The notes beneath the pieces are model-generated. The model worked only from the letters and a program-made list of their open reading frames with translations, was not told the origin of the DNA and ran no database searches. The translations under genes were made by a program, and so were the position numbers. DNA of 63,467 bases, counting the filler, from Craspedostauros australis (lineage: Eukaryota): the NCBI GenBank assembly GCA_030167865.1. It is 9 parts of 9 records of this genome, joined end to end, with 100 filler letters (N's around TTAATTAATTAA, not from the genome) between each part and the next. Parts side by side here need not be neighbours in the genome. Positions count along the whole stretch, not along the records: positions 42,719 to 48,114 come from JALAGF010003620.1; 8 more parts are not named here. The stretch is one strand, 5' to 3'. This document shows, in pieces, positions 1,864-54,983 of this stretch. The first letter of the stretch is position 1, and each line of letters opens with the position of its first letter.

Positions 1864-2809
1864 GATGAGAGTTGTTTGTATGATGTATGTTGATGGATGT
1901 GATGGCTTCTACTCTGTGTTTTATGACATGTGAGTTACAAACAGAGGTTGTCACTCCTTGGGAAGCATCACACCATTCCTATTCGATGCTGTGTACATCC
2001 ATCGTACATCTGTTGCTCCGAATGGACACTGCATACCAGCGGACAAGTTATTCGCATCCGACTGCAGAGCTCGGAGACTTTTTGTACTTGCGTGGATCGA
2101 CTGCATTGCGTACCACAGCCTCATCATGTTTGTCGTGCACGTCATTGCAAGCGAACAACTAGTCCACCAGCATGTACAGCATCCAATGAGGGATCCAATG
2201 CTGATAGACTCATGTGAATGCACGCCATCCATCTGAGCCTCCCGATGTTCCCACACTGGTGAGTTCGAACTCGCGCAACATCGAATCACAGTTGAATGTC
2301 ATCAACCATTACCTCCTATCATGATTCCGTTTGGTTCCATTGCTGTTGCTGAGTCTAGTTGTTCGGAATATGAGTGCAAGATCAGACCAAATATAGCGCA
2401 TCGACCACAGAGTTGGATTGTGGTGATCTTGCTCCATCCGCAATGGGTCCCGGAATACAATTTGTCGGTCCCTGTGTGTCGCGACTTGCCATGACTAAAT
2501 GTAATCTGATCCTCCTTGTAATTGGATCTGGACCGTTCCAAGGTGGGTACATGCCAATGGCTGATGTGAGTATGCAATTGATAATAGCTGGTTGGACCCT
2601 CTGCTCAACAGGATTCACCGACAACATCATCAACTAGACTAATTTCCAATGTTTTGCAGGGAAATGGTTGATGTGTTGACTTTGTGGCTAAATTATTATT
2701 TTCGAGCCTGTCGCAGCGATACGCCAGCCATTTCATTGATCCAATCATCGTGTCAGGAACAAAAACGACCTGGTTAGTGGACTTTGCCAACAAAAACGAT
2801 AGGCCTCTA
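1..2809 (-). mobile_element. Autonomous MULE DNA transposon (one terminus visible)
   Basis: Transposase plus putative terminus CGATAGGCCTCTA at 2797-2809, which shares 13 bp with the adjacent TIR element. Subterminal repeat AACAAAAACGA occurs twice (2758, 2789). The other end is outside the window. Confidence 0.7.
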
Positions 2810-2810
2810 G

Positions 2811-3913
2811 TAGAGGCCTATCGCATTTCACATTGGGAGTCTCACGGTACAAAATAACCTGATATTGACATTTTTAGAGGGGCAACATGCGAACTTCCCC
2901 CTCGGAAAGTGAAACTCGATTTCGTTTTAGGAGCCAAAAACACAATTGAGTTGCACATTGCAGTCCCGGCAAGCCAAGCTTCCACGTGTTGGAACGAAAC
3001 CAATGGCCAATCAGTTCTCTTCATTCGCAGCAATGTTGAGTCGTCCTTGTCGTGCTGATGATAGTTTTTTAGATGCTAGTGATGATGAAACTAGCATTCC
3101 GAATGAGGGGTGCATGGAGCGATAGAGAGCGATTACGATGTCGAATATGCCTGTAAGCTTCACATATGATATCTGCGCGCAAGAATCAAAGGACCCCTTC
3201 ATGATCCAGCTGAGGAATCTTTGCTCATATCCTATTTCACCCGATACAACATCCGCAGCGTGTTCCTGATGCTCTGAGGACTAGTGTTGTCAGATACGAC
3301 CAGGGACTTCTACCAACGCGCATTTTGCATCCTTTGGAGATCCTGACTGCCATATCGGAAGTCGTTGGTGGTCTCCAACCAACCCAACATGCAATCGCAA
3401 TAGTTCTGTGTAGACTGCGTGAAGAGCTTCTATTGGACAACAAACTGCTGATCTATCTCCATGATACGGTGATCAAGAGGTCTCTGTCGTCGATATGGGC
3501 AACAGAGCCTTGAATAAGCCATGAATTATCAGGGACAAAATGCTTGCGCATATGTTACCGGACCTCTGTTAGTGGCAAAGTTGAGACAGAAGAGATGGCA
3601 ACGAAACACTCACACCAGGAAGTTCCTAAGAGGAGAAATAGGGATTTGCGTTGCGTGCAACTCAGAGCACACCCACTAACGATCCCACCATCCTTTGGTC
3701 TCAACAAGTCAAGCGATAACCTGCAACGAAGCATTCAGATCATAACAGCCTAAATTCGAACTCTATTCTACAGAAGAGAAGCCAATTCAGTCATGTTGGT
3801 CGTCTTTGTGTGTAGGTCACGAACGAGTCACGAGTACCAATGCGAAATCCAAACGTGAGTGCCACATGTGACATGAACACAGGGGTGTGAATGTGAAATG
3901 CGATAGGCCTCTA
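2811..3913. mobile_element. Non-autonomous TIR element (MITE-like, ~1.1 kb)
   Basis: Perfect 24-bp inverted repeats TAGAGGCCTATCGCATTTCACATT (2811-2834 and 3890-3913); no intact ORF; second copy at 29509-30038. Confidence 0.85.
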
Positions 3914-28987: not shown

Positions 28988-29508
28988 TGATGACGACAAC
29001 GACGATGATGATGATGATTCTGGAGAGGCAGAAATAGAAACGATCAGGAGAGCGTACTTGTACAAGGTATGAGCATGTGGAGAGCCGCATGTCATGGGAT
29101 TCAATGAGTTCCAATTAAAGTTCAAGAGCAACACCAACGATTAGAAGGGAACCAACGCAGGGGCCTCAGAAACAACGACAACAACAACACCAACAGCCAA
29201 GTATAAGCGATCTCGCTGCAGTCACCAAGAGAGTCGACCCAAAGAGCTGATCCCCAGATAGGGATGGGAAACATAGGTCATACATGCGCTATCATCGGTC
29301 GTCATCCGTCCAGTCGCAGATGTTCTCACCAAGAGAGTCGCAAGCGAAATCTCTTTCTTCACGCCACCACCGCCATCGTCGTGGCCTCTCGTGTCGATTG
29401 CTAATTGCATGTGCTGGCGAAATAGCGGATTGGTTGATCGGAATAACGTGGGCGGGCACATGCCCCTCCTGACGATTGAAATAACGCGTGAGCATGTTTG
29501 AATGATAT

Positions 29509-30038
29509 TAGAGGCCTATCGCATTTCACATTGGGAGTCCCACGGTACAAAATAACCTGATAATGATATTTTTAGAGGGGCAACATGCGAACTTCCCCCT
29601 CGGAAAGTGAAACTCGATTGCGTTTTAGGAGCCAAAAACACAATTGAGTTTCACATTGCAGTCCCGGCAANCCAACCTTCCACGTGTTGGAACGAAACNA
29701 ATGGCCAATCATTTCTCTTCATTTGCAGAAATGTTGAGTCGTCCTTGTCGTAACAATGATATTTTTTTGAGATGCTAGTGATGATGAAACTAGCATTCCG
29801 AATGAGAGGTGCATGGAGCGATAGAGAGCGATTAAGATGTCGAATATGCCTGTAAGCTTCACATATGATATCTACGCGCAAATATAAAAGGACCCCTTCA
29901 TGATCCAGCTGAGGAATCTTTGCTCATATCCTAGTTCACCCGATACAACATCCACGGCGTGTTCCTGATGCTCTGAGGACTAGTGTAGTCAGATACGACC
30001 AGGGACTTCGACCAACGCGCATTTTGCATCTTTTGGAG
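29509..30038. mobile_element. Second, diverged copy of the 1.1-kb TIR element, truncated by contig end
   Basis: Starts TAGAGGCCTATCGCATTTCACATT and aligns by eye to 2811-3339 with scattered substitutions. Confidence 0.9.
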
Positions 30039-37584: not shown

Positions 37585-40051
37585 ACGCTGCATGAGTACT
37601 ACGACATGCGTACTGGCCGGTTTAAGCGAGCAGGCAACATTGTCTTCGATGAGGCGCATTTTTCGTCCCACGACAGGCCACCTGGCCCGCAGCTACTCTT
37701 CGATTTGGGTTTCGAGCAACCAAGTGCTGACGCACAACCTGATGCTGTCGTCACTGGCGCCGCTTATCCTCCGTCCCGGTCCAAGATTGCGAAAACACCG
37801 CCGATTGCGTGTCGCATCCCACTTCCTCTTGGTGATCTGGTTGACCGAGCTGCACAGCATGCTTCTGCTGCAATGTGTCAGACCACCCATGCAGCGCACA
37901 CGGTCGACATCGAAATGGCCGATGATCCTTTCGGGTACAGCTTCGATCAGGTGGTCGCAATCGCTGGCTCGGATGGCACGCTTGGGATGGAATTCACTCA
38001 CGATGCCCAGCGTGATCGTCTTGTGCTAGTGATGTGCAGGCCAGGACAACCGTCTGCTCGCATTCCGCGATGGCGGTCCCGGCTTCGACACTCACACCTC
38101 CTTGCGGTGGATGGTGTTGATGTGCACACACTGGCGCAGCTCAAGACGCGGATACAGCAGCTCCGTGATGCCAAGGCTACCAGTGCCACGTTCGTATTCG
38201 CATTCGATGATGTGCGCAACGCGATGTCTCAAACTGGCGTGCCCCAGATGTACTTCGATCAACTCAGGCATGTCCAGGACATCATTGAGTCAGCTCGTCC
38301 CACAGCTCACGCTACCAGCGTTGCGAGTGCCCCGACAAAGTTGACTCGGCGTACGCTTCGACAGCAGGATGACTGGCCCGAGTGGAGCGCCGCTGAAGAC
38401 AAGCAGCTTGATCAATACGATGCGCAGCAGATGTTTGGAGACCCTGTGCTACCACCGGCCGACGCTGCGGTGTTCAACTGGGTGTGGGTATACGTCGTCA
38501 AGACTCACGAAAACAATCGCAAGAAAGCTCGTGCTGTTTGTGATGGATCAACCCGTGGCGGACACGCTCGGATCTTTGGGCACACCTACGCTGCTACGCC
38601 GGATCTAACCGAGTTCCGTATTCTTCTGGCCATTGCGGCGATACAGGGTCTACGGGTATACGGCTCTGATGTCACCAATGCGTTCGCGGAGGCTCCTGCT
38701 GGAGAACAACGGTACTACATGAGGGTGGATGAGCAGTACCGCACTTGGTGGGAGAAGCGACGGGGCAAACTCATGCCACGAGGAGCCGTGATTCCAGTCC
38801 TCAAGAACCTTCAGGGACATCCCGAGGCGCCCCGACAGTGGAGCTGTCATGTCAATGGCCTTCTGAAGCGCATGGGTTTCCATGGTACCACGCATGCTCC
38901 CTGCCTTTACATGGGACGCGTCCTTTCTTCCAAGGTCTACGTGCTTCGACAAGTGGATGATTTCGCAGTTGCCGCCACCAACGAGGCCGTCTTCAGCGCG
39001 TTCTGCGACTTGTTGGACAAACATCTCTTCCAGCCCATGACGCGACAAGGCCTCATTGTTCATTACAATGGTTTGGACGTCGATCAGACCCAGGATTTCG
39101 TCAAGGTGCACTGCACTTCCTACATTGACAAGGTGCTGGAGCGGTACCAGTGGCAGAACTTCAAGACCACACAGCGGTTGCCCATGCGGTCCGACAATTC
39201 TTATGTCAAGAGTCTGGATAAGGCGGTGCTCCCAGTCGATGACGATGAGCGACTTCGTGTGGCAAGCCAGTTCAAGTTCGGGTACAGGCAGGCTATTGGC
39301 GAGCTGATATGGGCGATGATTTCATGTCGGCCTGACATTTCTTTCCCCGTCGTGAAGCTCTCGCAGTTCTCCGCCAACCCAGCTGCTCTACATTTTGAAG
39401 GGGTGAAGTATCTCATGCGGTATGTCGCTGGCACGCGCGACCACGGTGTCACCTACTGGAGGATACAGCCACTCATGAGTCTCCCCGCAGCACCCCGCCC
39501 AGTCCGCCTTTCGCCGACCGATGATGCCGTCCACGATGCCACCGGCATACAACATCTTGATGCCTCAACGTTGTACGGGTACACTGATGCGGATTGGGGC
39601 GTCGACATCCGACATCGACGGTCGGTCACAGGCATCATTTACATATTTGGTGGAGCTGCTGTGGCATGGAAAACCCGAGTTCAACCTACGGTCTCGCTCA
39701 GTAGCACTGAGGCCGAGTTCGTCGCAGCCAGCGACGCCGGCCGCATGGCCTTGTGGCTTCGATCCATTCTCGATGAAGTGGAGGTGAAGCAGCAGTATGC
39801 GACTATGATCTTCGAGGACAACCGCGGTGCTCGGCTGATGGCCAGCGCCAGTCAGCCTACCCGGAATTCGCGCCACATAGCGATCCGAGAGTTCGCGGTC
39901 CTCGATTGGGTGGAAAGAGATCTCCTGACATACCCAGAAGTCGCATCAGACCTGAATGCATCCGACATATGCACGAAACAGACACCTGTGGCTCTGTACT
40001 TTCGGCACATCGACCTTGTTATGGGTCGGCTTGTGCCCTTCTATGTACGCA
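37585..40051 (+). mobile_element. Ty1/Copia family A pol fragment (integrase tail, PDZ-like domain, RT, RNase H)
   Basis: KARAVCDG, SDVTNAF, LQGHPEAPRQW, RQVDDF, CRPDI, YTDADWG..RRSVTG, SLSSTEAEF, FEDN, NASDICTK. Confidence 0.95.
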
Positions 40052-40151
40052 NNNNNNNNNNNNNNNNNNNNNNNNNNNNNNNNNNNNNNNNNNNNTTAAT
40101 TAATTAANNNNNNNNNNNNNNNNNNNNNNNNNNNNNNNNNNNNNNNNNNNN

Positions 40152-42618
40152 ACGCTGCATGAGTACTACGACATGCGTACTGGCCGGTTTAAGCGAGCAG
40201 GCAACATTGTCTTCGATGAGGCGCATTTTTCGTCCCACGACAGGCCACCTGGCCCGCAGCTACTCTTCGATTTGGGTTTCGAGCAACCAAGTGCTGACGC
40301 ACAACCTGATGCTGTCGTCACTGGCGCCGCTTATCCTCCGTCCCGGTCCAAGATTGCGAAAACACCGCCGATTGCGTGTCGCATCCCACTTCCTCTTGGT
40401 GATCTGGTTGACCGAGCTGCACAGCATGCTTCTGCTGCAATGTGTCAGACCACCCATGCAGCGCACACGGTCGACATCGAAATGGCCGATGATCCTTTCG
40501 GGTACAGCTTCGATCAGGTGGTCGCAATCGCTGGCTCGGATGGCACGCTTGGGATGGAATTCACTCACGATGCCCAGCGTGATCGTCTTGTGCTAGTGAT
40601 GTGCAGGCCAGGACAACCGTCTGCTCGCATTCCGCGATGGCGGTCCCGGCTTCGACACTCACACCTCCTTGCGGTGGATGGTGTTGATGTGCACACACTG
40701 GCGCAGCTCAAGACGCGGATACAGCAGCTCCGTGATGCCAAGGCTACCAGTGCCACGTTCGTATTCGCATTCGATGATGTGCGCAACGCGATGTCTCAAA
40801 CTGGCGTGCCCCAGATGTACTTCGATCAACTCAGGCATGTCCAGGACATCATTGAGTCAGCTCGTCCCACAGCTCACGCTACCAGCGTTGCGAGTGCCCC
40901 GACAAAGTTGACTCGGCGTACGCTTCGACAGCAGGATGACTGGCCCGAGTGGAGCGCCGCTGAAGACAAGCAGCTTGATCAATACGATGCGCAGCAGATG
41001 TTTGGAGACCCTGTGCTACCACCGGCCGACGCTGCGGTGTTCAACTGGGTGTGGGTATACGTCGTCAAGACTCACGAAAACAATCGCAAGAAAGCTCGTG
41101 CTGTTTGTGATGGATCAACCCGTGGCGGACACGCTCGGATCTTTGGGCACACCTACGCTGCTACGCCGGATCTAACCGAGTTCCGTATTCTTCTGGCCAT
41201 TGCGGCGATACAGGGTCTACGGGTATACGGCTCTGATGTCACCAATGCGTTCGCGGAGGCTCCTGCTGGAGAACAACGGTACTACATGAGGGTGGATGAG
41301 CAGTACCGCACTTGGTGGGAGAAGCGACGGGGCAAACTCATGCCACGAGGAGCCGTGATTCCAGTCCTCAAGAACCTTCAGGGACATCCCGAGGCGCCCC
41401 GACAGTGGAGCTGTCATGTCAATGGCCTTCTGAAGCGCATGGGTTTCCATGGTACCACGCATGCTCCCTGCCTTTACATGGGACGCGTCCTTTCTTCCAA
41501 GGTCTACGTGCTTCGACAAGTGGATGATTTCGCAGTTGCCGCCACCAACGAGGCCGTCTTCAGCGCGTTCTGCGACTTGTTGGACAAACATCTCTTCCAG
41601 CCCATGACGCGACAAGGCCTCATTGTTCATTACAATGGTTTGGACGTCGATCAGACCCAGGATTTCGTCAAGGTGCACTGCACTTCCTACATTGACAAGG
41701 TGCTGGAGCGGTACCAGTGGCAGAACTTCAAGACCACACAGCGGTTGCCCATGCGGTCCGACAATTCTTATGTCAAGAGTCTGGATAAGGCGGTGCTCCC
41801 AGTCGATGACGATGAGCGACTTCGTGTGGCAAGCCAGTTCAAGTTCGGGTACAGGCAGGCTATTGGCGAGCTGATATGGGCGATGATTTCATGTCGGCCT
41901 GACATTTCTTTCCCCGTCGTGAAGCTCTCGCAGTTCTCCGCCAACCCAGCTGCTCTACATTTTGAAGGGGTGAAGTATCTCATGCGGTATGTCGCTGGCA
42001 CGCGCGACCACGGTGTCACCTACTGGAGGATACAGCCACTCATGAGTCTCCCCGCAGCACCCCGCCCAGTCCGCCTTTCGCCGACCGATGATGCCGTCCA
42101 CGATGCCACCGGCATACAACATCTTGATGCCTCAACGTTGTACGGGTACACTGATGCGGATTGGGGCGTCGACATCCGACATCGGCGGTCGGTCACAGGC
42201 ATCATTTACATATTTGGTGGAGCTGCTGTGGCATGGAAGACCCGAGTTCAACCTACGGTCTCGCTCAGTAGCACTGAGGCCGAATTCGTCGCAGCCAGCG
42301 ACGCCGGCCGCATGGCCTTGTGGCTTCGATCCATTCTCGATGAAGTGGGGGTGAAGCAGCAGTATGCGACTATGATCTTCGAGGACAACCGCGGTGCTCG
42401 GCTGATGGCCAGCGCCAGTCAGCCTACCCGGAATTCGCGCCACATAGCGATCCGAGAGTTCGCGGTCCTCGATTGGGTGGAAAGAGATCTCCTGACATAC
42501 CCAGAAGTCGCATCAGACCTGAATGCATCCGACATATGCACGAAACAGACACCTGTGGCTCTGTACTTTCGGCACATCGACCTTGTTATGGGTCGGCTTG
42601 TGCCCTTCTATGTACGCA
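40152..42618 (+). mobile_element. Ty1/Copia family A pol fragment, near-identical variant of 37585-40051
   Basis: Same start and end points; only a few A/G differences, in RNase H. Confidence 0.95.
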
Positions 42619-42718: not shown

Positions 42719-45700
42719 CGATGTCGGATGTCGACGCCCCAATCCGCATCAGTGTACCCGTACAACGTTGAGGCATCAAGATGTTGTATGCCGGTGGCAT
42801 CGTGGACGGCATCATCGGTCGGCGAAAGGCGGACTGGGCGGGGTGCTGCGGGGAGACTCATGAGTGGCTGTATCCTCCAGTAGGTGACACCGTGGTCGCG
42901 CGTGCCAGCGACATACCGCATGAGATACTTCACCCCTTCAAAATGTAGAGCAGCTGGGTTGGCGGAGAACTGCGAGAGCTTCACGACGGGGAAAGAAATG
43001 TCAGGCCGACATGAAATCATCGCCCATATCAGCTCGCCAATAGCCTGCCTGTACCCGAACTTGAACTGGCTTGCCACACGAAGTCGCTCATCGTCATCGA
43101 CTGGGAGCACCGCCTTATCCAGACTCTTGACATAAGAATTGTCGGACCGCATGGGCAACCGCTGTGTGGTCTTGAAGTTCTGCCACTGGTACCGCTCCAG
43201 CACCTTGTCAATGTAGGAAGTGCAGTGCACCTTGACGAAATCCTGGGTCTGATCGACGTCCAAACCATTGTAATGAACAATGAGGCCTTGTCGCGTCATG
43301 GGCTGGAAGAGATGTTTGTCCAACAAGTCGCAGAACGCGCTGAAGACGGCCTCGTTGGTGGCGGCAACTGCGAAATCATCCACTTGTCGAAGCACGTAGA
43401 CCTTGGAAGAAAGGACGCGTCCCATGTAAAGGCAGGGAGCATGCGTGGTACCATGGAAACCCATGCGCTTCAGAAGGCCATTGACATGACAGCTCCACTG
43501 TCGGGGCGCCTCGGGATGTCCCTGAAGGTTCTTGAGGACTGGAATCACGGCTCCTCGTGGCATGAGTTTGCCCCGTCGCTTCTCCCACCAAGTGCGGTAC
43601 TGCTCATCCACCCTCATGTAGTACCGTTGTTCTCCAGCAGGAGCCTCCGCGAACGCATTGGTGACATCAGAGCCGTATACCCGTAGACCCTGTATCGCCG
43701 CAATGGCCAGAAGAATACGGAACTCGGTTAGATCCGGCGTAGCAGCGTAGGTGTGCCCAAAGATCCGAGCGTGTCCGCCACGGGTTGATCCATCACAAAC
43801 AGCACGAGCTTTCTTGCGATTGTTTTCGTGAGTCTTGACGACGTATACCCACACCCAGTTGAACACCGCAGCGTCGGCCGGTGGTAGCACAGGGTCTCCA
43901 AACATCTGCTGCGCATCGTATTGATCAAGCTGCTTGTCTTCAGCGGCGCTCCACTCGGGCCAGTCATCCTGCTGTCGAAGCGTACGCCGAGTCAACTTTG
44001 TCGGGGCACTCGCAACGCTGGTAGCGTGAGCTGTGGGACGAGCTGACTCAATGATGTCCTGGACATGCCTGAGTTGATCGAAGTACATCTGGGGCACGCC
44101 AGTTTGAGACATCGCGTTGCGCACATCATCGAATGCGAATACGAACGTGGCACTGGTAGCCTTGGCATCACGGAGCTGCTGTATCCGCGTCTTGAGCTGC
44201 GCCAGTGTGTGCACATCAACACCATCCACCGCAAGGAGGTGTGAGTGTCGAAGCCGGGACCGCCATCGCGGAATGCGAGCAGACGGTTGTCCTGGCCTGC
44301 ACATCACTAGCACAAGACGATCACGCTGGGCATCGTGAGTGAATTCCATCCCAAGCGTGCCATCCGAGCCAGCGATTGCGACCACCTGATCGAAGCTGTA
44401 CCCGAAAGGATCATCGGCCATTTCGATGTCGACCGTGTGCGCTGCATGGGTGGTCTGACACATTGCAGCAGAAGCATGCTGTGCAGCTCGGTCAACCAGA
44501 TCACCAAGAGGAAGTGGGATGCGACACGCAATCGGCGGTGTTTTCGCAATCTTGGACCGGGACGGAGGATAAGCGGCGCCAGTGACGACAGCATCAGGTT
44601 GTGCGTCAGCACTTGGTTGCTCGAAACCCAAATCGAAGAGTAGCTGCGGGCCAGGTGGCCTGTCGTGGGACGAAAAATGCGCCTCATCGAAGACAATGTT
44701 GCCTGCTCGCTTAAACCGGCCAGTACGCATGTCGTAGTACTCATGCAGCGTCGACGTAGCCGTGTGCCCGACAAAGATGCCATCGTAGGTATGCGCATCA
44801 AGCTTGGCGGCAGCCTTCCCCGGCTTCTTGACCGTGACTCGAGACCCGAACACACGCAGGTGCGACAGATCTGGAACAACCCCATGCTGGCGCTGATAAG
44901 GTGTCATGCGAATGCCTGAATGGTAGAGCCGATTCTTGATGTACACCGCATGTGCCAGAGCCTTCGACCAGAAGTGTGGCTGCATGCCAGACGAGTACAA
45001 CAGGGCGCGTACCATTGTGCCAAACGTCCTGTTGAGGCGCTCGACTTTGCCATTCATCCACGCACAGTCCGCGCCAGTGGGCTCCACAGTGTACCCGCAC
45101 TCGAATACCATCTCGCGAAACTGATCTGACCTTGCAAGTTCGCCGCCCAAGTCGACGCGCACGGCACGATAGCCGTCGGAGCGCCCAAAGGACGAAAGCA
45201 CATGCCGAACAGCCGCAAGTGGTGGCGACTTGTCCTTGGTCATGAAAACCCACACGTAAGCAGTGAAGGCATCCACAACGAGCAGATAAGCGCAGTATCC
45301 ATCGATGGACTTCACCACTCGTGGCGTATTGTGGCCTGACTTCCCGCGTCCATACGCAGCGTTCGTGGCTCGCATGAACCCGAAGTCAACATGGAACCTG
45401 GCACCGCGCACGTTGGCTGTGGTAGTATCGTTGGGCCCACGTGCCGCATGTTGGTATCCAGCCTGGCTGCACGCGTCGCAATGCCGCAATGGATGCACTC
45501 CGGCGACTGCCGCATCAGGAATGCCAGTGGCACACTTGGTCAGGTGTCGGAGCTGGCTCATGCCAACATGTCCCAGCCGAAGATGCCACAGCTCGGACAC
45601 AAGAGCCTTGGACGCCTTGCGGACGGAGAACACTTGGTGAGATGGTCCTTCGAAGTAATAGAGCCCGTTACGAACCACCAAAGGTATCTCCACACGGCCA

Positions 45701-46254
45701 GCCTCCGACGTGAACACGACTTTGGCACCGTGGGGTTCGGACTCGACGCAGAAGCCGTGAAAGTCATTGTCGGTTTGACGAACGACTGCTTGGGGTGATA
45801 TCAGGGTGTCCGCCAGGTGTGGGCAGTGCAGCATTCTCACGTCCACATGTACTCCATCAGAGCCATGCAGCCGCATGAATCCCGCACCTGGACATGCCAT
45901 GGCCGGAGCCGACGCATTGGCAGCTTCCAGCAACACTGGCGTCGCAAAAGTGCCGTATTCCCGCAGCAGTCGTAGGTGGGGCGTGGCGGAAACATTGGCC
46001 CCAGGGTCGCACTGGCCGTTGTCCTGACGCCGCCATGCACGTTGGCCACATGGCGAGGACACGACCGCAAAAACCTGGAGCTCGTCATGAGCCACAATGG
46101 GCACCAACTTGGATGGGCACCCGTGTTGGTAGGCTTGGGCAAGCGAAGACACCTCTCCACGTGGAGCGCCTACCGGTGTCTCGCATTCACCTGAAATTGC
46201 GCGTAGCTGTTCACCAGGGAGCGACGTTACTCCTGGCCAGCATGCACAAAATCC
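42719..46254 (-). CDS. pol: Copia family A Pol (-1 frame relative to gag; truncated by gap)
   Basis: PR QCDPGAN; LWHLRLGH..CDAC; integrase FHVDF, VVDAF, RVDLGGE, NGKVER; GIFVGH; RT RQVDD; RH YTDADW. Confidence 0.9.
46206..46254 (-). promoter_or_regulatory. Candidate -1 ribosomal frameshift signal (G_GAU_UUU plus downstream hairpin); copy at 51702-51750
   Basis: Gag codons CAG GAT TTT place the heptamer in slippery phase; the pol frame is open through it; stem GCUG/CCAGG..CCUGG/CAGC begins 6 nt downstream. Confidence 0.75.
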
Positions 46255-47933
46255 TGAAGGAGCATATTCGCAACGTGGGTCGCGATGTCCTCCTCGTCCA
46301 ACTCATCGACCGCCCCAAGGTCATCACTCGTCACCTGAAGGGCTCTTGCGAAGGCACGAGACTTGTCCTTGGTGTATGTATCCTTGAACTTCTCCAGCAC
46401 TGCTGATGCCAGGTCAGGCTTGGACTCACGGAGTTCAGCGAACGCCAGGTGCCGTGCCCAATTGAGACAGGAGGCAGCCTTGTGTCCACCACGGCGGCAA
46501 GCCTCGCAGAACGCGTCTTTATCAGGTTGATAAAACGCAGACCGCTTGCGCTCACCCTTGGGTCCACCACCACCGCCTTGTCGAGCAGATGAGCGGGTTT
46601 GAACACGGTGCCCAATGGGTCGATGAGCCGCGGTAGGGTCTGGGTGAATGGACCGAGCCAGTGCCGACACATGTAAGTGCGGTGGCACACGCTTGGACGC
46701 GGGCTGCAACTCCAGGGAAGTGATGAGGTGCCCTACGTCCATGCCATTCGAACGGAGATCCTCAAGAAACCGGCGAGTCAACTCGACATCGGTGAAATGC
46801 CGCTTGTGCACCACTGTCTCTGTCTGCTGGTATGCAAGCAGAGCATCTGCAAAGAGTACGATGTCCTTGTACTCCGAGTAAGTGGGTGCCTGGCTGACCG
46901 TGCGCTCAATTCGCTGGAACGCGTCGAGGAGCACCTGATGTAAGAGAAGATACCCAGAGAGCCGATGAGGAATGACCCCAAAACACGCAGTGTGGTACAT
47001 CTTCACAGACGGATTGTCAAGATCAAGGACGCCATCCTCCTGCAGCTTACGATTGAGCTGAACCCCGGACCGGTGTACGATGTCGCGCGGAGCATTCCTG
47101 GGAATGAGGGAGCACCTTGGGTTGAAATGCGAAAGGGGAACCAGGGCCACGCCAACACGATCTGCCTCACTCTGTAGGTGGGTGTACCACTTCATCACGT
47201 CGGCAGGATCATCGACAGACAACTGACTGGTCCACCGTTGCCAATAGCCCAACGCATCGCGATCGGGTTCGAGGGGAGACAGAATGGCGTCGTAGGTGAA
47301 GTGCGCGGTCGCGGCAGGGTTGCCATTGGCCACCGAGTACGGAAGGCCTGACCCAGTAATGTAGTCGTGCGACTCTCGTGGCTCACGCGCGGGCGCGGCA
47401 CCGGAGATGTCCAGCGGACTCTCAACGGTGGCACCTGGGGATTCACCAGGGGGCACGCGTACACCAGAACCATCCGCGGCAGGTCCATAGTGGCCAGCAG
47501 CGGTAGTGGTCACATCACTAGCAGCCAGAGCGCCTGTATCAGTGGGTGGAGACGGTGGTAGCACACTGGCACCTTCAGTAGGCGGAGGCGGCTTGAGGGA
47601 AAGGTTGACAGGAGTCGTCTTGCCGTCGCGCTTGAACTTGCGCAGGGTTTCGCGGTCAAGAGTGGTCACCCACGACTCGACGTCGGGATTGTCGCGATAA
47701 TACGCGCGGAGCTGGCGAAGACCAAACTCACGGGTTGGAGAGTTCTTTGCCCATGCGGCAAGAAACCCATCGAAGACGTCATCGTCCAACTCAAGGAAGT
47801 CCCAGAGGTCGAGGGTGTCTTGAATGTTAGCGCCAGTGACGAAGAGACCAGCCCAGTGCCAGTTGAGGCGGGCGAAGAGGTCCGAGAGACCTTTGAGTTC
47901 GTCAGAACTGAGAGGGTCGTTTTTGGCAGGCAT
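46227..47933 (-). CDS. gag: Copia family A Gag (568 aa)
   Basis: Zinc knuckle CEACRRGGHKAASC; lies between the PBS and pol. Confidence 0.88.
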   Translation of the reverse strand: MPAKNDPLSSDELKGLSDLFARLNWHWAGLFVTGANIQDTLDLWDFLELDDDVFDGFLAAWAKNSPTREFGLRQLRAYYRDNPDVESWVTTLDRETLRKFKRDGKTTPVNLSLKPPPPTEGASVLPPSPPTDTGALAASDVTTTAAGHYGPAADGSGVRVPPGESPGATVESPLDISGAAPAREPRESHDYITGSGLPYSVANGNPAATAHFTYDAILSPLEPDRDALGYWQRWTSQLSVDDPADVMKWYTHLQSEADRVGVALVPLSHFNPRCSLIPRNAPRDIVHRSGVQLNRKLQEDGVLDLDNPSVKMYHTACFGVIPHRLSGYLLLHQVLLDAFQRIERTVSQAPTYSEYKDIVLFADALLAYQQTETVVHKRHFTDVELTRRFLEDLRSNGMDVGHLITSLELQPASKRVPPHLHVSALARSIHPDPTAAHRPIGHRVQTRSSARQGGGGGPKGERKRSAFYQPDKDAFCEACRRGGHKAASCLNWARHLAFAELRESKPDLASAVLEKFKDTYTKDKSRAFARALQVTSDDLGAVDELDEEDIATHVANMLLQDFVHAGQE

Positions 47934-48058
47934 GATGGGGCAAAAGTGGAACGGGTGTAGAGAGCGAGGGAAGGAGCGAGAAAGGAAGCTGCGCGGATGG
48001 GTATTTCCAGTAACAGCAGAGGGTACAGAGTAGCAGGATTAGCACTAAAGCTTATTTC

Positions 48059-48067
48059 CTCATAACC
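48059..48067 (-). promoter_or_regulatory. Primer-binding site GGTTATGAG (half-tRNA-iMet type); copy at 53555-53563
   Basis: Immediately follows the LTR-like ..ACA end; complementary to the CUCAUAACC anticodon arm of initiator tRNA-Met. Confidence 0.7.
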
Positions 48068-48214
48068 TGTGATGATCGGGAGACGATACGGGATGTGTTG
48101 TGTGTGTGATGATGNNNNNNNNNNNNNNNNNNNNNNNNNNNNNNNNNNNNNNNNNNNNTTAATTAATTAANNNNNNNNNNNNNNNNNNNNNNNNNNNNNN
48201 NNNNNNNNNNNNNN

Positions 48215-51200
48215 CGATGTCGGATGTCGACGCCCCAATCCGCATCAGTGTACCCGTACAACGTTGAGGCATCAAGATGTTGTATGCCGGTGGCATCGTG
48301 GACGGCATCATCGGTCGGCGAAAGGCGGACTGGGCGGGGTGCTGCGGGGAGACTCATGAGTGGCTGTATCCTCCAGTAGGTGACACCGTGGTCGCGCGTG
48401 CCAGCGACATACCGCATGAGATACTTCACCCCTTCAAAATGTAGAGCAGCTGGGTTGGCGGAGAACTGCGAGAGCTTCACGACGGGGAAAGAAATGTCAG
48501 GCCGACATGAAATCATCGCCCATATCAGCTCGCCAATAGCCTGCCTGTACCCGAACTTGAACTGGCTTGCCACACGAAGTCGCTCATCGTCATCGACTGG
48601 GAGCACCGCCTTATCCAGACTCTTGACATAAGAATTGTCGGACCGCATGGGCAACCGCTGTGTGGTCTTGAAGTTCTGCCACTGGTACCGCTCCAGCACC
48701 TTGTCAATGTAGGAAGTGCAGTGCACCTTGACGAAATCCTGGGTCTGATCGACGTCCAAACCATTGTAATGAACAATGAGGCCTTGTCGCGTCATGGGCT
48801 GGAAGAGATGTTTGTCCAACAAGTCGCAGAACGCGCTGAAGACGGCCTCGTTGGTGGCGGCAACTGCGAAATCATCCACTTGTCGAAGCACGTAGACCTT
48901 GGAAGAAAGGACGCGTCCCATGTAAAGGCAGGGAGCATGCGTGGTACCATGGAAACCCATGCGCTTCAGAAGGCCATTGACATGACAGCTCCACTGTCGG
49001 GGCGCCTCGGGATGTCCCTGAAGGTTCTTGAGGACTGGAATCACGGCTCCTCGTGGCATGAGTTTGCCCCGTCGCTTCTCCCACCAAGTGCGGTACTGCT
49101 CATCCACCCTCATGTAGTACCGTTGTTCTCCAGCAGGAGCCTCCGCGAACGCATTGGTGACATCAGAGCCGTATACCCGTAGACCCTGTATCGCCGCAAT
49201 GGCCAGAAGAATACGGAACTCGGTTAGATCCGGCGTAGCAGCGTAGGTGTGCCCAAAGATCCGAGCGTGTCCGCCACGGGTTGATCCATCACAAACAGCA
49301 CGAGCTTTCTTGCGATTGTTTTCGTGAGTCTTGACGACGTATACCCACACCCAGTTGAACACCGCAGCGTCGGCCGGTGGTAGCACAGGGTCTCCAAACA
49401 TCTGCTGCGCATCGTATTGATCAAGCTGCTTGTCTTCAGCGGCGCTCCACTCGGGCCAGTCATCCTGCTGTCGAAGCGTACGCCGAGTCAACTTTGTCGG
49501 GGCACTCGCAACGCTGGTAGCGTGAGCTGTGGGACGAGCTGACTCAATGATGTCCTGGACATGCCTGAGTTGATCGAAGTACATCTGGGGCACGCCAGTT
49601 TGAGACATCGCGTTGCGCACATCATCGAATGCGAATACGAACGTGGCACTGGTAGCCTTGGCATCACGGAGCTGCTGTATCCGCGTCTTGAGCTGCGCCA
49701 GTGTGTGCACATCAACACCATCCACCGCAAGGAGGTGTGAGTGTCGAAGCCGGGACCGCCATCGCGGAATGCGAGCAGACGGTTGTCCTGGCCTGCACAT
49801 CACTAGCACAAGACGATCACGCTGGGCATCGTGAGTGAATTCCATCCCAAGCGTGCCATCCGAGCCAGCGATTGCGACCACCTGATCGAAGCTGTACCCG
49901 AAAGGATCATCGGCCATTTCGATGTCGACCGTGTGCGCTGCATGGGTGGTCTGACACATTGCAGCAGAAGCATGCTGTGCAGCTCGGTCAACCAGATCAC
50001 CAAGAGGAAGTGGGATGCGACACGCAATCGGCGGTGTTTTCGCAATCTTGGACCGGGACGGAGGATAAGCGGCGCCAGTGACGACAGCATCAGGTTGTGC
50101 GTCAGCACTTGGTTGCTCGAAACCCAAATCGAAGAGTAGCTGCGGGCCAGGTGGCCTGTCGTGGGACGAAAAATGCGCCTCATCGAAGACAATGTTGCCT
50201 GCTCGCTTAAACCGGCCAGTACGCATGTCGTAGTACTCATGCAGCGTTGATGTAGCTGTGTGCCCGACAAAGATGCCATCGTAGGTATGCGCATCAAGCT
50301 TGGCGGCGGCCTTTCCCGGCTTCTTGACCGTGACTCGAGACCCGAACACACGCAGGTGCGACAGATCTGGAACAACCCCATGCTGGCACTGATAAGGTGT
50401 CATGCGAATGCCTGAATGGTAGAGCCGATTCTTGATGTACACCGCATGTGCCAGAGCCTTCGACCAGAAGTGCGGCTGCATGCCAGACGAGTACAACAGG
50501 GCGCGTACCATCGTGCCAAACGTCCTGTTGAGGCGCTCGACTTTGCCATTCATCCACGCACAGTCTGTGCCAGTGGGCTCCACAGTGTATCCGCACTCGA
50601 ATACCATCTCGCGAAATTGATCTGACCTTGCAAGTTCGCCGCCCAAGTCGACGCGCACGGCACGATAGCCGTCGGAGCGCCCAAAGGACGAAAGCACATG
50701 CCGAACAGCCGCAAGTGGTGGCGACTTGTCCTTGGTCATGAAAACCCACACGTAAGCAGTGAAGGCATCCACAACGAGCAGATAAGCGCAGTATCCATCG
50801 ATGGACTTCACCACTCGTGGCGTATTGTGGCCTGACTTCCCGCGTCCATACGCAGCGTTCGTGGCTCGCATGAACCCGAAGTCAACATGGAACCTGGCAC
50901 CGCGCACGTTGGCTGTGGTAGTATCGTTGGGCCCACGTGCCGCATGTTGGTATCCAGCCTGGCTGCACGCGTCGCAATGCCGCAATGGATGCACTCCGGC
51001 GACTGCCGCATCAGGAATGCCAGTGGCACACTTGGTCAGGTGTCGGAGCTGGCTCATGCCAACATGTCCCAGCCGAAGATGCCACAGCTCGGACACAAGA
51101 GCCTTGGACGCCTTGCGGACGGAGAACACTTGGTGAGATGGTCCTTCGAAGTAATAGAGCCCGTTACGAACCACCAAAGGTATCTCCACACGGCCAGCCT

Positions 51201-51750
51201 CCGACGTGAACACGACTTTGGCACCGTGGGGTTCGGACTCGACGCAGAAGCCGTGAAAGTCATTGTCGGTTTGACGAACGACTGCTTGGGGTGATATCAG
51301 GGTGTCCGCCAGGTGTGGGCAGTGCAGCATTCTCACGTCCACATGTACTCCATCAGAGCCATGCAGCCGCATGAATCCCGCACCTGGACATGCCATGGCC
51401 GGAGCCGACGCATTGGCAGCTTCCAGCAACACTGGCGTCGCAAAAGTGCCGTATTCCCGCAGCAGTCGTAGGTGGGGCGTGGCGGAAACATTGGCCCCAG
51501 GGTCGCACTGGCCGTTGTCCTGACGCCGCCATGCACGTTGGCCACATGGCGAGGACACGACCGCAAAAACCTGGAGCTCGTCATGAGCCACAATGGGCAC
51601 CAACTTGGATGGGCACCCGTGTTGGTAGGCTTGGGCAAGCGAAGACACCTCTCCACGTGGAGCGCCTACCGGTGTCTCGCATTCACCTGAAATTGCGCGT
51701 AGCTGTTCACCAGGGAGCGACGTTACTCCTGGCCAGCATGCACAAAATCC
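48215..51750 (-). CDS. pol: Copia family A Pol (second copy, truncated by gap)
   Basis: Same motifs as 42719-46254. Confidence 0.9.
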
Positions 51751-53429
51751 TGAAGGAGCATATTCGCAACGTGGGTCGCGATGTCCTCCTCGTCCAACTC
51801 ATCGACCGCCCCAAGGTCATCACTCGTCACCTGAAGGGCTCTTGCGAAGGCACGAGACTTGTCCTTGGTGTATGTATCCTTGAACTTCTCCAGCACTGCT
51901 GATGCCAGGTCAGGCTTGGACTCACGGAGTTCAGCGAACGCCAGGTGCCGTGCCCAATTGAGACAGGAGGCAGCCTTGTGTCCACCACGGCGGCAAGCCT
52001 CGCAGAACGCGTCTTTATCAGGTTGATAAAACGCAGACCGCTTGCGCTCACCCTTGGGTCCACCACCACCGCCTTGTCGAGCAGATGAGCGGGTTTGAAC
52101 ACGGTGCCCAATGGGTCGATGAGCCGCGGTAGGGTCTGGGTGAATGGACCGAGCCAGTGCCGACACATGTAAGTGCGGTGGCACACGCTTGGACGCGGGC
52201 TGCAACTCCAGGGAAGTGATGAGGTGCCCTACGTCCATGCCATTCGAACGGAGATCCTCAAGAAACCGGCGAGTCAACTCGACATCGGTGAAATGCCGCT
52301 TGTGCACCACTGTCTCTGTCTGCTGGTATGCAAGCAGAGCATCTGCAAAGAGTACGATGTCCTTGTACTCCGAGTAAGTGGGTGCCTGGCTGACCGTGCG
52401 CTCAATTCGCTGGAACGCGTCGAGGAGCACCTGATGTAAGAGAAGATACCCAGAGAGCCGATGAGGAATGACCCCAAAACACGCAGTGTGGTACATCTTC
52501 ACAGACGGATTGTCAAGATCAAGGACGCCATCCTCCTGCAGCTTACGATTGAGCTGAACCCCGGACCGGTGTACGATGTCGCGCGGAGCATTCCTGGGAA
52601 TGAGGGAGCACCTTGGGTTGAAATGCGAAAGGGGAACCAGGGCCACGCCAACACGATCTGCCTCACTCTGTAGGTGGGTGTACCACTTCATCACGTCGGC
52701 AGGATCATCGACAGACAACTGACTGGTCCACCGTTGCCAATAGCCCAACGCATCGCGATCGGGTTCGAGGGGAGACAGAATGGCGTCGTAGGTGAAGTGC
52801 GCGGTCGCGGCAGGGTTGCCATTGGCCACCGAGTACGGAAGGCCTGACCCAGTAATGTAGTCGTGCGACTCTCGTGGCTCACGCGCGGGCGCGGCACCGG
52901 AGATGTCCAGCGGACTCTCAACGGTGGCACCTGGGGATTCACCAGGGGGCACGCGTACACCAGAACCATCCGCGGCAGGTCCATAGTGGCCAGCAGCGGT
53001 AGTGGTCACATCACTAGCAGCCAGAGCGCCTGTATCAGTGGGTGGAGACGGTGGTAGCACACTGGCACCTTCAGTAGGCGGAGGCGGCTTGAGGGAAAGG
53101 TTGACAGGAGTCGTCTTGCCGTCGCGCTTGAACTTGCGCAGGGTTTCGCGGTCAAGAGTGGTCACCCACGACTCGACGTCGGGATTGTCGCGATAATACG
53201 CGCGGAGCTGGCGAAGACCAAACTCACGGGTTGGAGAGTTCTTTGCCCATGCGGCAAGAAACCCATCGAAGACGTCATCGTCCAACTCAAGGAAGTCCCA
53301 GAGGTCGAGGGTGTCTTGAATGTTAGCGCCAGTGACGAAGAGACCAGCCCAGTGCCAGTTGAGGCGGGCGAAGAGGTCCGAGAGACCTTTGAGTTCGTCA
53401 GAACTGAGAGGGTCGTTTTTGGCAGGCAT
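51723..53429 (-). CDS. gag: Copia family A Gag (second copy)
   Basis: Translation identical to 46227-47933. Confidence 0.88.
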   Translation of the reverse strand: MPAKNDPLSSDELKGLSDLFARLNWHWAGLFVTGANIQDTLDLWDFLELDDDVFDGFLAAWAKNSPTREFGLRQLRAYYRDNPDVESWVTTLDRETLRKFKRDGKTTPVNLSLKPPPPTEGASVLPPSPPTDTGALAASDVTTTAAGHYGPAADGSGVRVPPGESPGATVESPLDISGAAPAREPRESHDYITGSGLPYSVANGNPAATAHFTYDAILSPLEPDRDALGYWQRWTSQLSVDDPADVMKWYTHLQSEADRVGVALVPLSHFNPRCSLIPRNAPRDIVHRSGVQLNRKLQEDGVLDLDNPSVKMYHTACFGVIPHRLSGYLLLHQVLLDAFQRIERTVSQAPTYSEYKDIVLFADALLAYQQTETVVHKRHFTDVELTRRFLEDLRSNGMDVGHLITSLELQPASKRVPPHLHVSALARSIHPDPTAAHRPIGHRVQTRSSARQGGGGGPKGERKRSAFYQPDKDAFCEACRRGGHKAASCLNWARHLAFAELRESKPDLASAVLEKFKDTYTKDKSRAFARALQVTSDDLGAVDELDEEDIATHVANMLLQDFVHAGQE

Positions 53430-53710
53430 GATGGGGCAAAAGTGGAACGGGTGTAGAGAGCGAGGGAAGGAGCGAGAAAGGAAGCTGCGCGGATGGGTAT
53501 TTCCAGTAACAGCAGAGGGTACAGAGTAGCAGGATTAGCACTAAAGCTTATTTCCTCATAACCTGTGATGATCGGGAGACGATACGGGATGTGTTGTGTG
53601 TGTGATGATGNNNNNNNNNNNNNNNNNNNNNNNNNNNNNNNNNNNNNNNNNNNNTTAATTAATTAANNNNNNNNNNNNNNNNNNNNNNNNNNNNNNNNNN
53701 NNNNNNNNNN

Positions 53711-54886
53711 GGGCTTGCAGTATTCCAAGGATGTGAGAACCATATCCGCCCTGTCATTGTTTCCAGAGCTATTTTTGTTCTCCGATGAAGGCTTGTTGTT
53801 GGCAGTGATTCGACCCTCAGAGACATGACGTTTCTTCAACCGACATTCCGCCTCCATGTGGCCAAACTTGCCGCAGTACGTGCAGCGTTCTCCATTTCCG
53901 CTGTTACCATTGTTGCCGTTTCCGTTGCCCTTGCCGTTGCTGTTTCCTTTGCCTCTCTTCTTTCCAGTCTTCTTGCCTTTGCCTCCTTTCTTGCCGTTTG
54001 GACAGTCGGCTCCCTTGTGTCCATACTCGTTGCACTTGCGGCATCGTCCCTTGAATCCACCCATAGTGGCGTGGGCATGGTCAGCCTTGCTTGAGTTGTC
54101 TTCCACATCCAAAACATATGCCTTTTGGTTGGTTTGGCGCATCCATGTCAAGTTTGTCACTTCCCTGACAGTGGAGATCGCGACCGAAGAGGCGTTCATT
54201 CGCATCTGTTGCTCGATCAAAAGGATGTCTTGAGAGTACTCATTCGACATCGTTGCCAAAACATGAAGTATGAATTCTTCATCCGTCATTGTGAGCCCCA
54301 CTTCCGACATGCAAAGTCGTAAGAGCTCTAGCTTGGTGATGTAGAGGTCCGGATCAGCGTTCTTTCCCATTTTCTCATTGTTGAATTGGTACTTTAGCTT
54401 GATCTTTGTGGACGTGTTGGTCGGCTTGTATTTTTCTTCGAGGGCTTTCCAAGCAGAGCGAGCATCTCCGTACGGGTATTCATGACTCTCGTACTTTTGG
54501 ATCATTACCAGCACAGCCTTTCCTGCAGCTGTCTCATTATCCATCATCAACACAAGATCTGCAAAGGCTTGCTTGTTCCTTGCTTGGATCTTGGCTTGTT
54601 TGTCTGCCTCAGCTGCTGGAACCGCACTGAGCTTCGACACTGGTAGAGTTTCCTCATTTCCCTTGTAAACATCACTGGTATTTCGCAGCACCGAGAATGC
54701 CTTCGCCATCAAAATCCATGATGCATATCCCTCCCGGGATCCGTCGAACTTGGGTCCGCGTTTGAAGGTGGCGGTGCGATCGTCGTCACTCATCGTGATC
54801 GGAACAGTTGTTGGCTTGCCTGCCTTTTCCAACAGTTCGATGTCTTCCGATTTGACGGGGTCTGGTCGTAGTTCTGTACCTGACAT
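53711..54886 (-). CDS. gag: Copia family B Gag (start of gag-pol, cut by gap)
   Basis: PKFDG..Y..W, AWKALEEKY, DPDLYITKLE; two knuckles CRKCNEYGHKGADC and CTYCGKFGHMEAEC. Confidence 0.9.
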
Positions 54887-54983
54887 GCACTAATCACACA
54901 GAGTTCCGAGTTTAACGTTTCGAAACGTGTTAGAAACCCTATGATCTTAGCCAAGGCAGAATGCCAGAGTTTGTGCAGCAACC

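Follow-up and report, generated by a model that had tools for sequence, protein, structure and literature searches.

The window, by which we mean the whole analyzed stretch of 63,467 nt (filler included) from Craspedostauros australis, carries on its minus strand a Ty1/copia (Pseudoviridae) element whose gag and pol lie in different reading frames (Table 1). The window is gapped, with N's totaling 708, and the element is present twice, at 42719–48114 and 48215–53610, on separate contigs of 5,396 bp that are each bounded by N gaps. These two copies differ at 12 sites, all inside 44752–45121, and are probably haplotypes or near-identical insertions that the scaffolder placed next to each other; a third copy on another contig was identical across the 401 bases searched. 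An earlier, sequence-only reading of the window had pointed out that both copies are identical at the gag-pol junction. This is the case, but since the contigs are near-identical, the agreement provides no independent evidence. The region from 37585 to 62000 is made up of duplicate and inverted gap-bounded contigs from two copia families, which are probably scaffolding artefacts, and a second copia gag with a match to Pfam Retrotran_gag_2 was located at 53711–54889 (minus strand). Separately, the window contains a 533-bp direct repeat (2808–3339 and 29506–30038) with 94% identity and a spacing of 26.7 kb. A host gene on the first contig matched raphid pennate diatoms best among named relatives (Cylindrotheca closterium 72%, Bacillariaceae 70%, Seminavis 67%), which makes a diatom of this kind the probable host.

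Table 1. Positions of the element, its gag-pol junction and related features (window coordinates unless a locus is named).
Feature	Position	Strand	Basis or remark
5' LTR, 3' end only (cut by contig edge)	48068..48114	-	close match to LTR 3' ends of L070/L071/L047 (LTR pairs 100% identical)
Putative primer-binding site GGTTATGAG	48059..48067	-	sequence; immediately after LTR
gag ORF, 568 aa	46227..47933	-	stop TAA 46229-46227 within hairpin loop
CCHC zinc knuckle of gag	46508-46467	-	motif
pol, -1 frame	42719..46254	-	protease motif, GAG-pre-integrase, integrase, SH3, PDZ, RT; RNase H cut by contig edge
Slippery heptamer G_GAU_UUU	46248..46254	-	X_XXY_YYZ phase within overlap, G_GA variant
6-nt spacer, sequence variable	46242..46247	-	alignment of cassettes
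Candidate stimulatory hairpin, 36 nt, bulged	46206..46241	-	folding and covariation
Lower stem GCUG/CAGC	46241-46238 with 46209-46206	-	part of hairpin
Invariant G·U pair	46237/46213	-	part of hairpin
Upper stem CCAGG/CCUGG	46236-46232 with 46218-46214	-	part of hairpin
3-purine bulge GAA	46212-46210	-	part of hairpin
Protease motif QCDPGANV	46014-45991	-	pol residues 97-104
PDZ domain between integrase and RT	about 44415-44125	-	AlphaFold model and Foldseek
Second-copy cassette, identical to first	51702..51750	-	within contig copy 48215-53610
Two gap-bounded contigs with 3' half of same pol, RNase H end included, inverted	37585..42618	+	probably scaffolding artefact
GAA-UGA-C junction loci, metagenomes	L080:3273-3325, L082, L083, L087, L090, L092-L097, L099, L103, L109		

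Within pol, the Pfam matches followed the order gag_pre-integrs, SH3_retrovirus and RVT_2 with the protease motif upstream, which yields the arrangement PR-IN-RT-RH. We take the putative primer-binding site to resemble the half-tRNA(iMet) primer type (Hemivirus criterion). In the relatives L044, L045 and L080, the sequence following the 5' LTR starts with GGTTTT instead of GGTTATG, as does the sequence at the likely LTR end of L317, which suggests that more than one primer is in use in this branch. The Gag protein matched no Pfam family above the cut-off and no homologue at E≤0.001 among 8,000 candidates of a protein search, and the leads of an Atlas search with Gag were all below 0.9. The region between integrase and reverse transcriptase (RT) was modeled by AlphaFold with a pLDDT of 78, and the matches that Foldseek listed were PDZ domains with a probability of 1.00 and a best E of 9e-5, while Pfam PDZ_6 gave weak matches in 6 of 21 members. 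This domain is common to the frameshift lineages and to the UGA lineages described below, and a literature search listed no paper on a PDZ domain in diatom copia elements. As a side observation, the protease of the frameshift group in this genome reads C-D-[P/L/I/V]-G-A-N throughout instead of D-[S/T]-G, and many proteins near the UGA clade read A-D-[T/S]-G-A-N.

The layout of the gag-pol junction proposed in the sequence-only reading was confirmed in all its main elements. Gag ends at the TAA listed in Table 1, and pol is shifted by -1 against the gag frame and is open from 46302, which leaves 76 nt, or about 25 codons, up to the last base of the gag stop. No ATG precedes the protease motif, the first pol-frame Met being residue 135. 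The heptamer GGATTTT is in slippery phase and encodes Asp-Phe in the gag frame, and the hairpin begins after a spacer of 6 nt. For the transframe peptide, the optional second Phe of that reading has to be dropped: tandem slippage predicts only one, giving ...LQDF-CACWPG....

The genome of origin (G000; 65.9 Mb in 6,734 contigs) was then searched with the pattern GGATTTT-N6-GCYGG, which matched 52 times versus 0 times for the reversed control. At 45 of these 52 places the match fell on a gag-pol junction of the family, and the other 7, lacking a gag or pol match, were rejected. With the first four heptamer bases left free, the pattern had 59 matches versus 18 in the control; 46 of them were family junctions, which read GGAT in 45 cases and ACAT in one. 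C3432, C3433, C3434 and C3473 and nine further matches lie outside the family and lack the heptamer; tblastn of the first four showed neither gag nor pol, and all were rejected as chance. In 10 cassette elements, GAT and TTT are each the less used of their synonymous codons (43.5% and 33%, respectively). Among 13 lineage representatives, TTT was kept in all 13 and GAT in 12, while most flanking columns agreed in only 4–11 of 13.

A protein-based search of the same genome yielded relatives whose integrase identity went as low as about 50%, and 46 of its loci were examined, 10 of which are distant copia elements. At 20 family loci the end of gag could be read and pol was open. All of these showed the -1 relation; GGATTTT stood in phase at 19 of them, and L039 had ACATTTT instead. 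Truncation, gaps, breaks or the lack of an integrase match affected the remaining 16 loci on the family side. Gag and pol in one frame, as expected if the offset were a simple indel in the window, were found at none of the family junctions examined. Five cassette-bearing relatives (L044, L045, L047, L071 and L318) have identical LTR pairs and therefore transposed recently; their LTRs are 98–138 bp long with TG..CA ends and a G-run ahead of the 3' LTR, and they are accompanied by 5-bp target duplications, as read for instance at L047 and L071. An older, decayed sub-family still has recognizable cassette remnants. With regards to the distant copia elements, L060–L063 have 549–943 open residues ahead of the integrase core, which fits a single ORF, whereas a possible -1 overlap in L064 has no heptamer.

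These data bear on another reading of the frame offset, namely an ordinary indel or an assembly error in dead copies, for which the fragmentation of the window and its duplicated contigs might speak. However, the same -1 offset occurs at the same motif in lineages that are 50–100% identical in integrase, in elements with identical LTRs, and in the element of another organism. Because the offset is shared across lineages in this way, we regard this reading as refuted and its probability as negligible.

The exceptional locus L039 (2524-2569; G000:C911) is single-copy, and no LTR pair was found. It combines A_CAU_UUU with the full hairpin, and both ORFs are open (pol 1,362 aa). The tRNA in the P site cannot re-pair on this heptamer, and L039 may be a dead copy. 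It may also still shift, because in pea enation mosaic virus (PEMV) RNA2, where G_GAU_UUU is a tested -1 site, blocking P-site re-pairing left 36–40% of shifting; according to the same passages of PMC4737148, the four U's are essential there and P-site re-pairing is of moderate importance.

The hairpin of the window, folded alone, reached -15.3 kcal/mol, a z of -1.24, with equal stability in 23 of 200 shuffled sequences. As single-sequence folding is thus unremarkable, the support for the hairpin is comparative. Covariation across family members had been proposed as a check, and a paired stem with compensatory changes was indeed found. The alignment of 25 distinct cassettes was almost gap-free, with 99.2% of 247 stem cells paired and double changes in 6 of 10 pairs, although such cell counts overstate the independent events because the sequences are related; counted by eye on the integrase tree, there were about 6–8 independent double changes. 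None of 500 shuffles scored as high, and slid controls paired at 23–46%. RNAalifold, unprompted, returned the lower stem of 4 bp, the invariant G·U with an upper stem of 5 bp, and the bulge of three purines. In a set of 16 rows, consisting of the 13 representatives from this genome plus L211, L117 and L119, pairing was 98.6% with double changes in 5 of 9 pairs.

The conservation of the lower stem and of UGAR is partly selected, because both belonged to the search patterns; the protein-based retrieval is free of that selection. The upper stem was unconstrained by the patterns and had at least 5 pairs in 23 of 25 cassettes, versus 5 of the 142 viral and prokaryote contig pattern matches listed, one of which is a real copia. 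Read in the pol frame, the bulge, GAR, encodes Glu, and selection on the protein may account for some of its conservation. Rfam gave 0 matches at E≤10 in 45900–46600. Several tertiary arrangements were considered as well. A K-turn was rejected by eye, the 5' strand being without GA, and base pairing between the bulge and an LTR word was discarded as inconsistent across lineages. For a pseudoknot with downstream bases, complements of only 3–7 nt were seen, a range without a control. With regard to long-range pairing of the bulge with a 3' loop, an exact 6-nt complement within 500 nt past the open pol end was present in 4 of 20 elements, with no shared place and with several loci lacking a 3' end.

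The cassette also occurs in other organisms. One copia element with the cassette (L211; L330 denotes the same contig) shares about 32% integrase and 34% RT-RNase H identity. It is located on an 8.5-kb contig inside a bacterial assembly (G001:C152), most likely a eukaryotic stray contig. Its CCHC-like gag ends in GAU UUU AUG UAA, its pol of 1,732 aa is open in -1, and its upper stem, CGAAAA/UUUUCG, differs from that of the family and is fully paired. Since this element was found by motif, it shows the depth of conservation, not its frequency. In its integrase, the zinc-binding part is separated from the core by a long acidic insert that has no Pfam match and, by eye, includes a chromodomain-like stretch.

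Three copies from metagenomes (L117, L119 and L120), all AT-rich and decayed, were found by protein alone and have the cassette ahead of the protease motif, in L117 and L119 at the gag-pol junction; the upper stem of L119 reads UUUUCAG/CUGAAAA. Because the frames of all three are broken, their -1 relation is only presumed. A covariance model detected L117 and the decayed copies of the own genome and missed L119 and L120. Among the 153 viral and prokaryote pattern loci listed, only L211 matched pol, the flanks being covered for 80 of the 120 prokaryote loci, and protein-based scans yielded 0 of 42 candidates for viral contigs and 0 of 17 for prokaryote genomes. The N-termini of the proteins P0004, P0010, P0014 and P0019 contain DERL or NERL, which is the pol-frame reading of the 3' arm of the hairpin, and the elements encoding them may therefore carry the cassette too. 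Across elements ranging from 100% to about 34% identity in RT-RNase H, the heptamer, the spacer length and the covarying hairpin are preserved.

A different junction was found in metagenome relatives, of which 38 of the 44 loci returned were examined. In 18 of these 38, gag and pol share one frame and are separated by a single UGA; 17 of the 18 junctions, several of them duplicates, read GAA-UGA-C, in most cases followed by a GC-rich stem. These junctions are candidates for stop-codon readthrough, and the frameshift cassette was absent from all 18. In the integrase tree, which omits L047, L117, L119, L114 and L330, the frameshift elements of the C. australis genome formed one clade (97/94) nested among UGA lineages. 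A quick RT-RH tree placed six UGA rows in one clade (99) together with proteins attributed to Cyclotella and Thalassiosira, and L330 and L119 on long, unsure branches.

Programmed -1 ribosomal frameshifting is, in our judgment, very probably the best explanation for Pol expression in this copia lineage. The sequence-only reading had already favored it, and it is supported by the -1 frames, the heptamer, the spacer and the covarying hairpin. According to this model, most ribosomes would translate gag and terminate 3 or 18 nt past the heptamer (TAA/TAG), which would release Gag. The hairpin 6 nt downstream, consisting of a 4-bp lower stem, the G·U pair, the 3-purine bulge and an upper stem of 4–7 bp depending on the variant, would pause the ribosome while its P site is on GAU (tRNA-Asp) and its A site on UUU (tRNA-Phe). 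Some ribosomes, the smaller part, would then slip back by one base to GGA/UUU, read ...Q-D-F-C-A-C-W-P-G..., and continue through protease, integrase, PDZ, RT and RNase H, giving Gag-Pol at a fixed low ratio. We infer the slip itself, its stimulation by the hairpin, the fixed low Gag:Pol ratio and any role of the bulge from this arrangement.

Alternatively, Pol could be made from a spliced mRNA, from an internal promoter or by re-initiation after the gag stop, with the hairpin serving packaging or dimerization. CAG stands directly before GATTTT in most members and is similar to a 3' splice site (A at -1 in 11 of 13), a Met precedes the protease in many members, and a minor promoter within the gag-pol junction is described for Candida Tca2 (PMC2194720). 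On the other hand, the AG is missing in intact members (CTG in L054, CAA in L317 and CGG in L330), donor-like words were present in just 2 of 20 elements and at differing places, and at the sequence level the search for an intron joining the frames found neither a splice donor nor an acceptor that is conserved. Between heptamer and protease motif, a Met is lacking in the window element, L069 and L070 and varies in position in the others. Moreover, such separate routes leave unexplained why a U-run in slippery phase stands exactly 6 nt before the stem, and we consider them improbable.

Still less probable is a slip of RNA polymerase or reverse transcriptase at the U-run that adds a base and fuses the frames in the nucleic acid itself. 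For the shift site of HIV, slippage of reverse transcriptase has been published (PMC5737442), and some members have five T's. However, the window element and most members have only four, and slippage by reverse transcriptase would leave fused, in-frame genomic copies, none of which occurred at 46 junctions. A fixed 6-nt spacer fits the geometry of the ribosome, which also counts against polymerase slippage and agrees with ribosomal frameshifting.

Going further, the 49-nt module could represent an old, compact and so far undescribed class of stimulator, in which the invariant G·U pair together with the purine bulge builds a tertiary motif or is bound by Gag or a host factor, and through which the ratio is regulated at translation. 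It would possibly be ancestral in this copia branch and have been swapped for UGA readthrough in the sub-clade to which centric-diatom elements belong, and slippage in the A site alone might possibly suffice (A_CAU_UUU). This extended scenario is speculative and, taken as a whole, rather unlikely; if true, the Gag:Pol ratio, and hence the stress-induced transposition in diatoms, would be regulated at translation. Apart from this scenario, the cassette is a very small, naturally varied stimulator that offers ready compensatory variants and one odd heptamer for mechanistic work. The relatives with an in-frame UGA imply that a recoding mechanism was swapped within one branch of retroelements, so that an exchange of the signals becomes testable. 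For genome annotation, it matters that pipelines would label intact frameshift elements as broken.

In the literature searched, no -1 cassette was found in copia elements; subscription journals, Repbase and GyDB were mostly uncovered, and the survey of Gao et al. from 2003, outside this scope, may include one. The CoDi Ty1/copia elements of diatoms were described by Maumus et al. in 2009 (PMC2806351), whose main-text passages mention neither a mechanism nor a slippery site nor an RNA structure and have 0 occurrences of "slippery". In PMC5009743 (Atkins 2016), "copia" and "diatom" are absent within the first 300,000 characters, and the text refers to the 2003 survey for -1 overlaps in animal and fungal retroelements. 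The ICTV profile (PMC8515867) gives no mechanism, and the relevant parts of PMC8147415, PMC2774666, PMC6317226, PMC5445492, PMC6875170 and bioRxiv 10.1101/2025.10.24.684338 contain no -1 signal in copia. As far as this literature goes, the -1 cassette appears to be undescribed for copia elements, and no earlier candidate for a nuclear -1 signal may exist in diatoms.

Making Gag-Pol through a -1 shift by a minority of ribosomes near the gag end is the retroviral way of setting the Gag:Pol ratio, as in HIV-1, and is also used by other LTR elements; a conserved copia cassette fills a gap here. In the HIV-1 stem, too, three purines bulge out of the 3' side. Unlike the retroviral -1 systems, the present elements have the copia domain order, which places them in a different superfamily, and a different heptamer. 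Within Ty1/copia, known solutions are the +1 shift of Ty1, the gag-UGA-pol arrangement of Tca2 and a single ORF (PMC5009743, PMC2194720, PMC8515867 and PMC6317226). The elements described here resemble Ty1 and Tca2 in having separate gag and pol ORFs that need recoding, and their UGA relatives are Tca2-like, but the -1 direction, the heptamer and the covarying stem set them apart from known copia recoding.

The closest similarity is to the umbraviruses and dianthoviruses, for which G_GA sites are listed in PMC5009743. As described in the published passages, they share the same non-canonical heptamer, a bulged hairpin just downstream and an in-frame stop 3 nt past the heptamer, the latter being found here in one sub-lineage and in L330. 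In contrast, umbravirus hairpins are reported there to measure 88–95 nt, with two large bulges and a distance of 2–5 nt from the site, and to pair with a distant 3' loop, whereas the copia hairpin measures 33–36 nt, has a single bulge of three purines and stands 6 nt from the site, and showed no consistent 3' partner within the 500 nt past pol that were covered. It thus falls outside the 88–95-nt, two-bulge description of the umbravirus/dianthovirus recoding element, and the resemblance presumably arose by convergence. On the comparative evidence, the cassette is deeply conserved in a diatom copia branch and would work like the retroviral and umbraviral signals.
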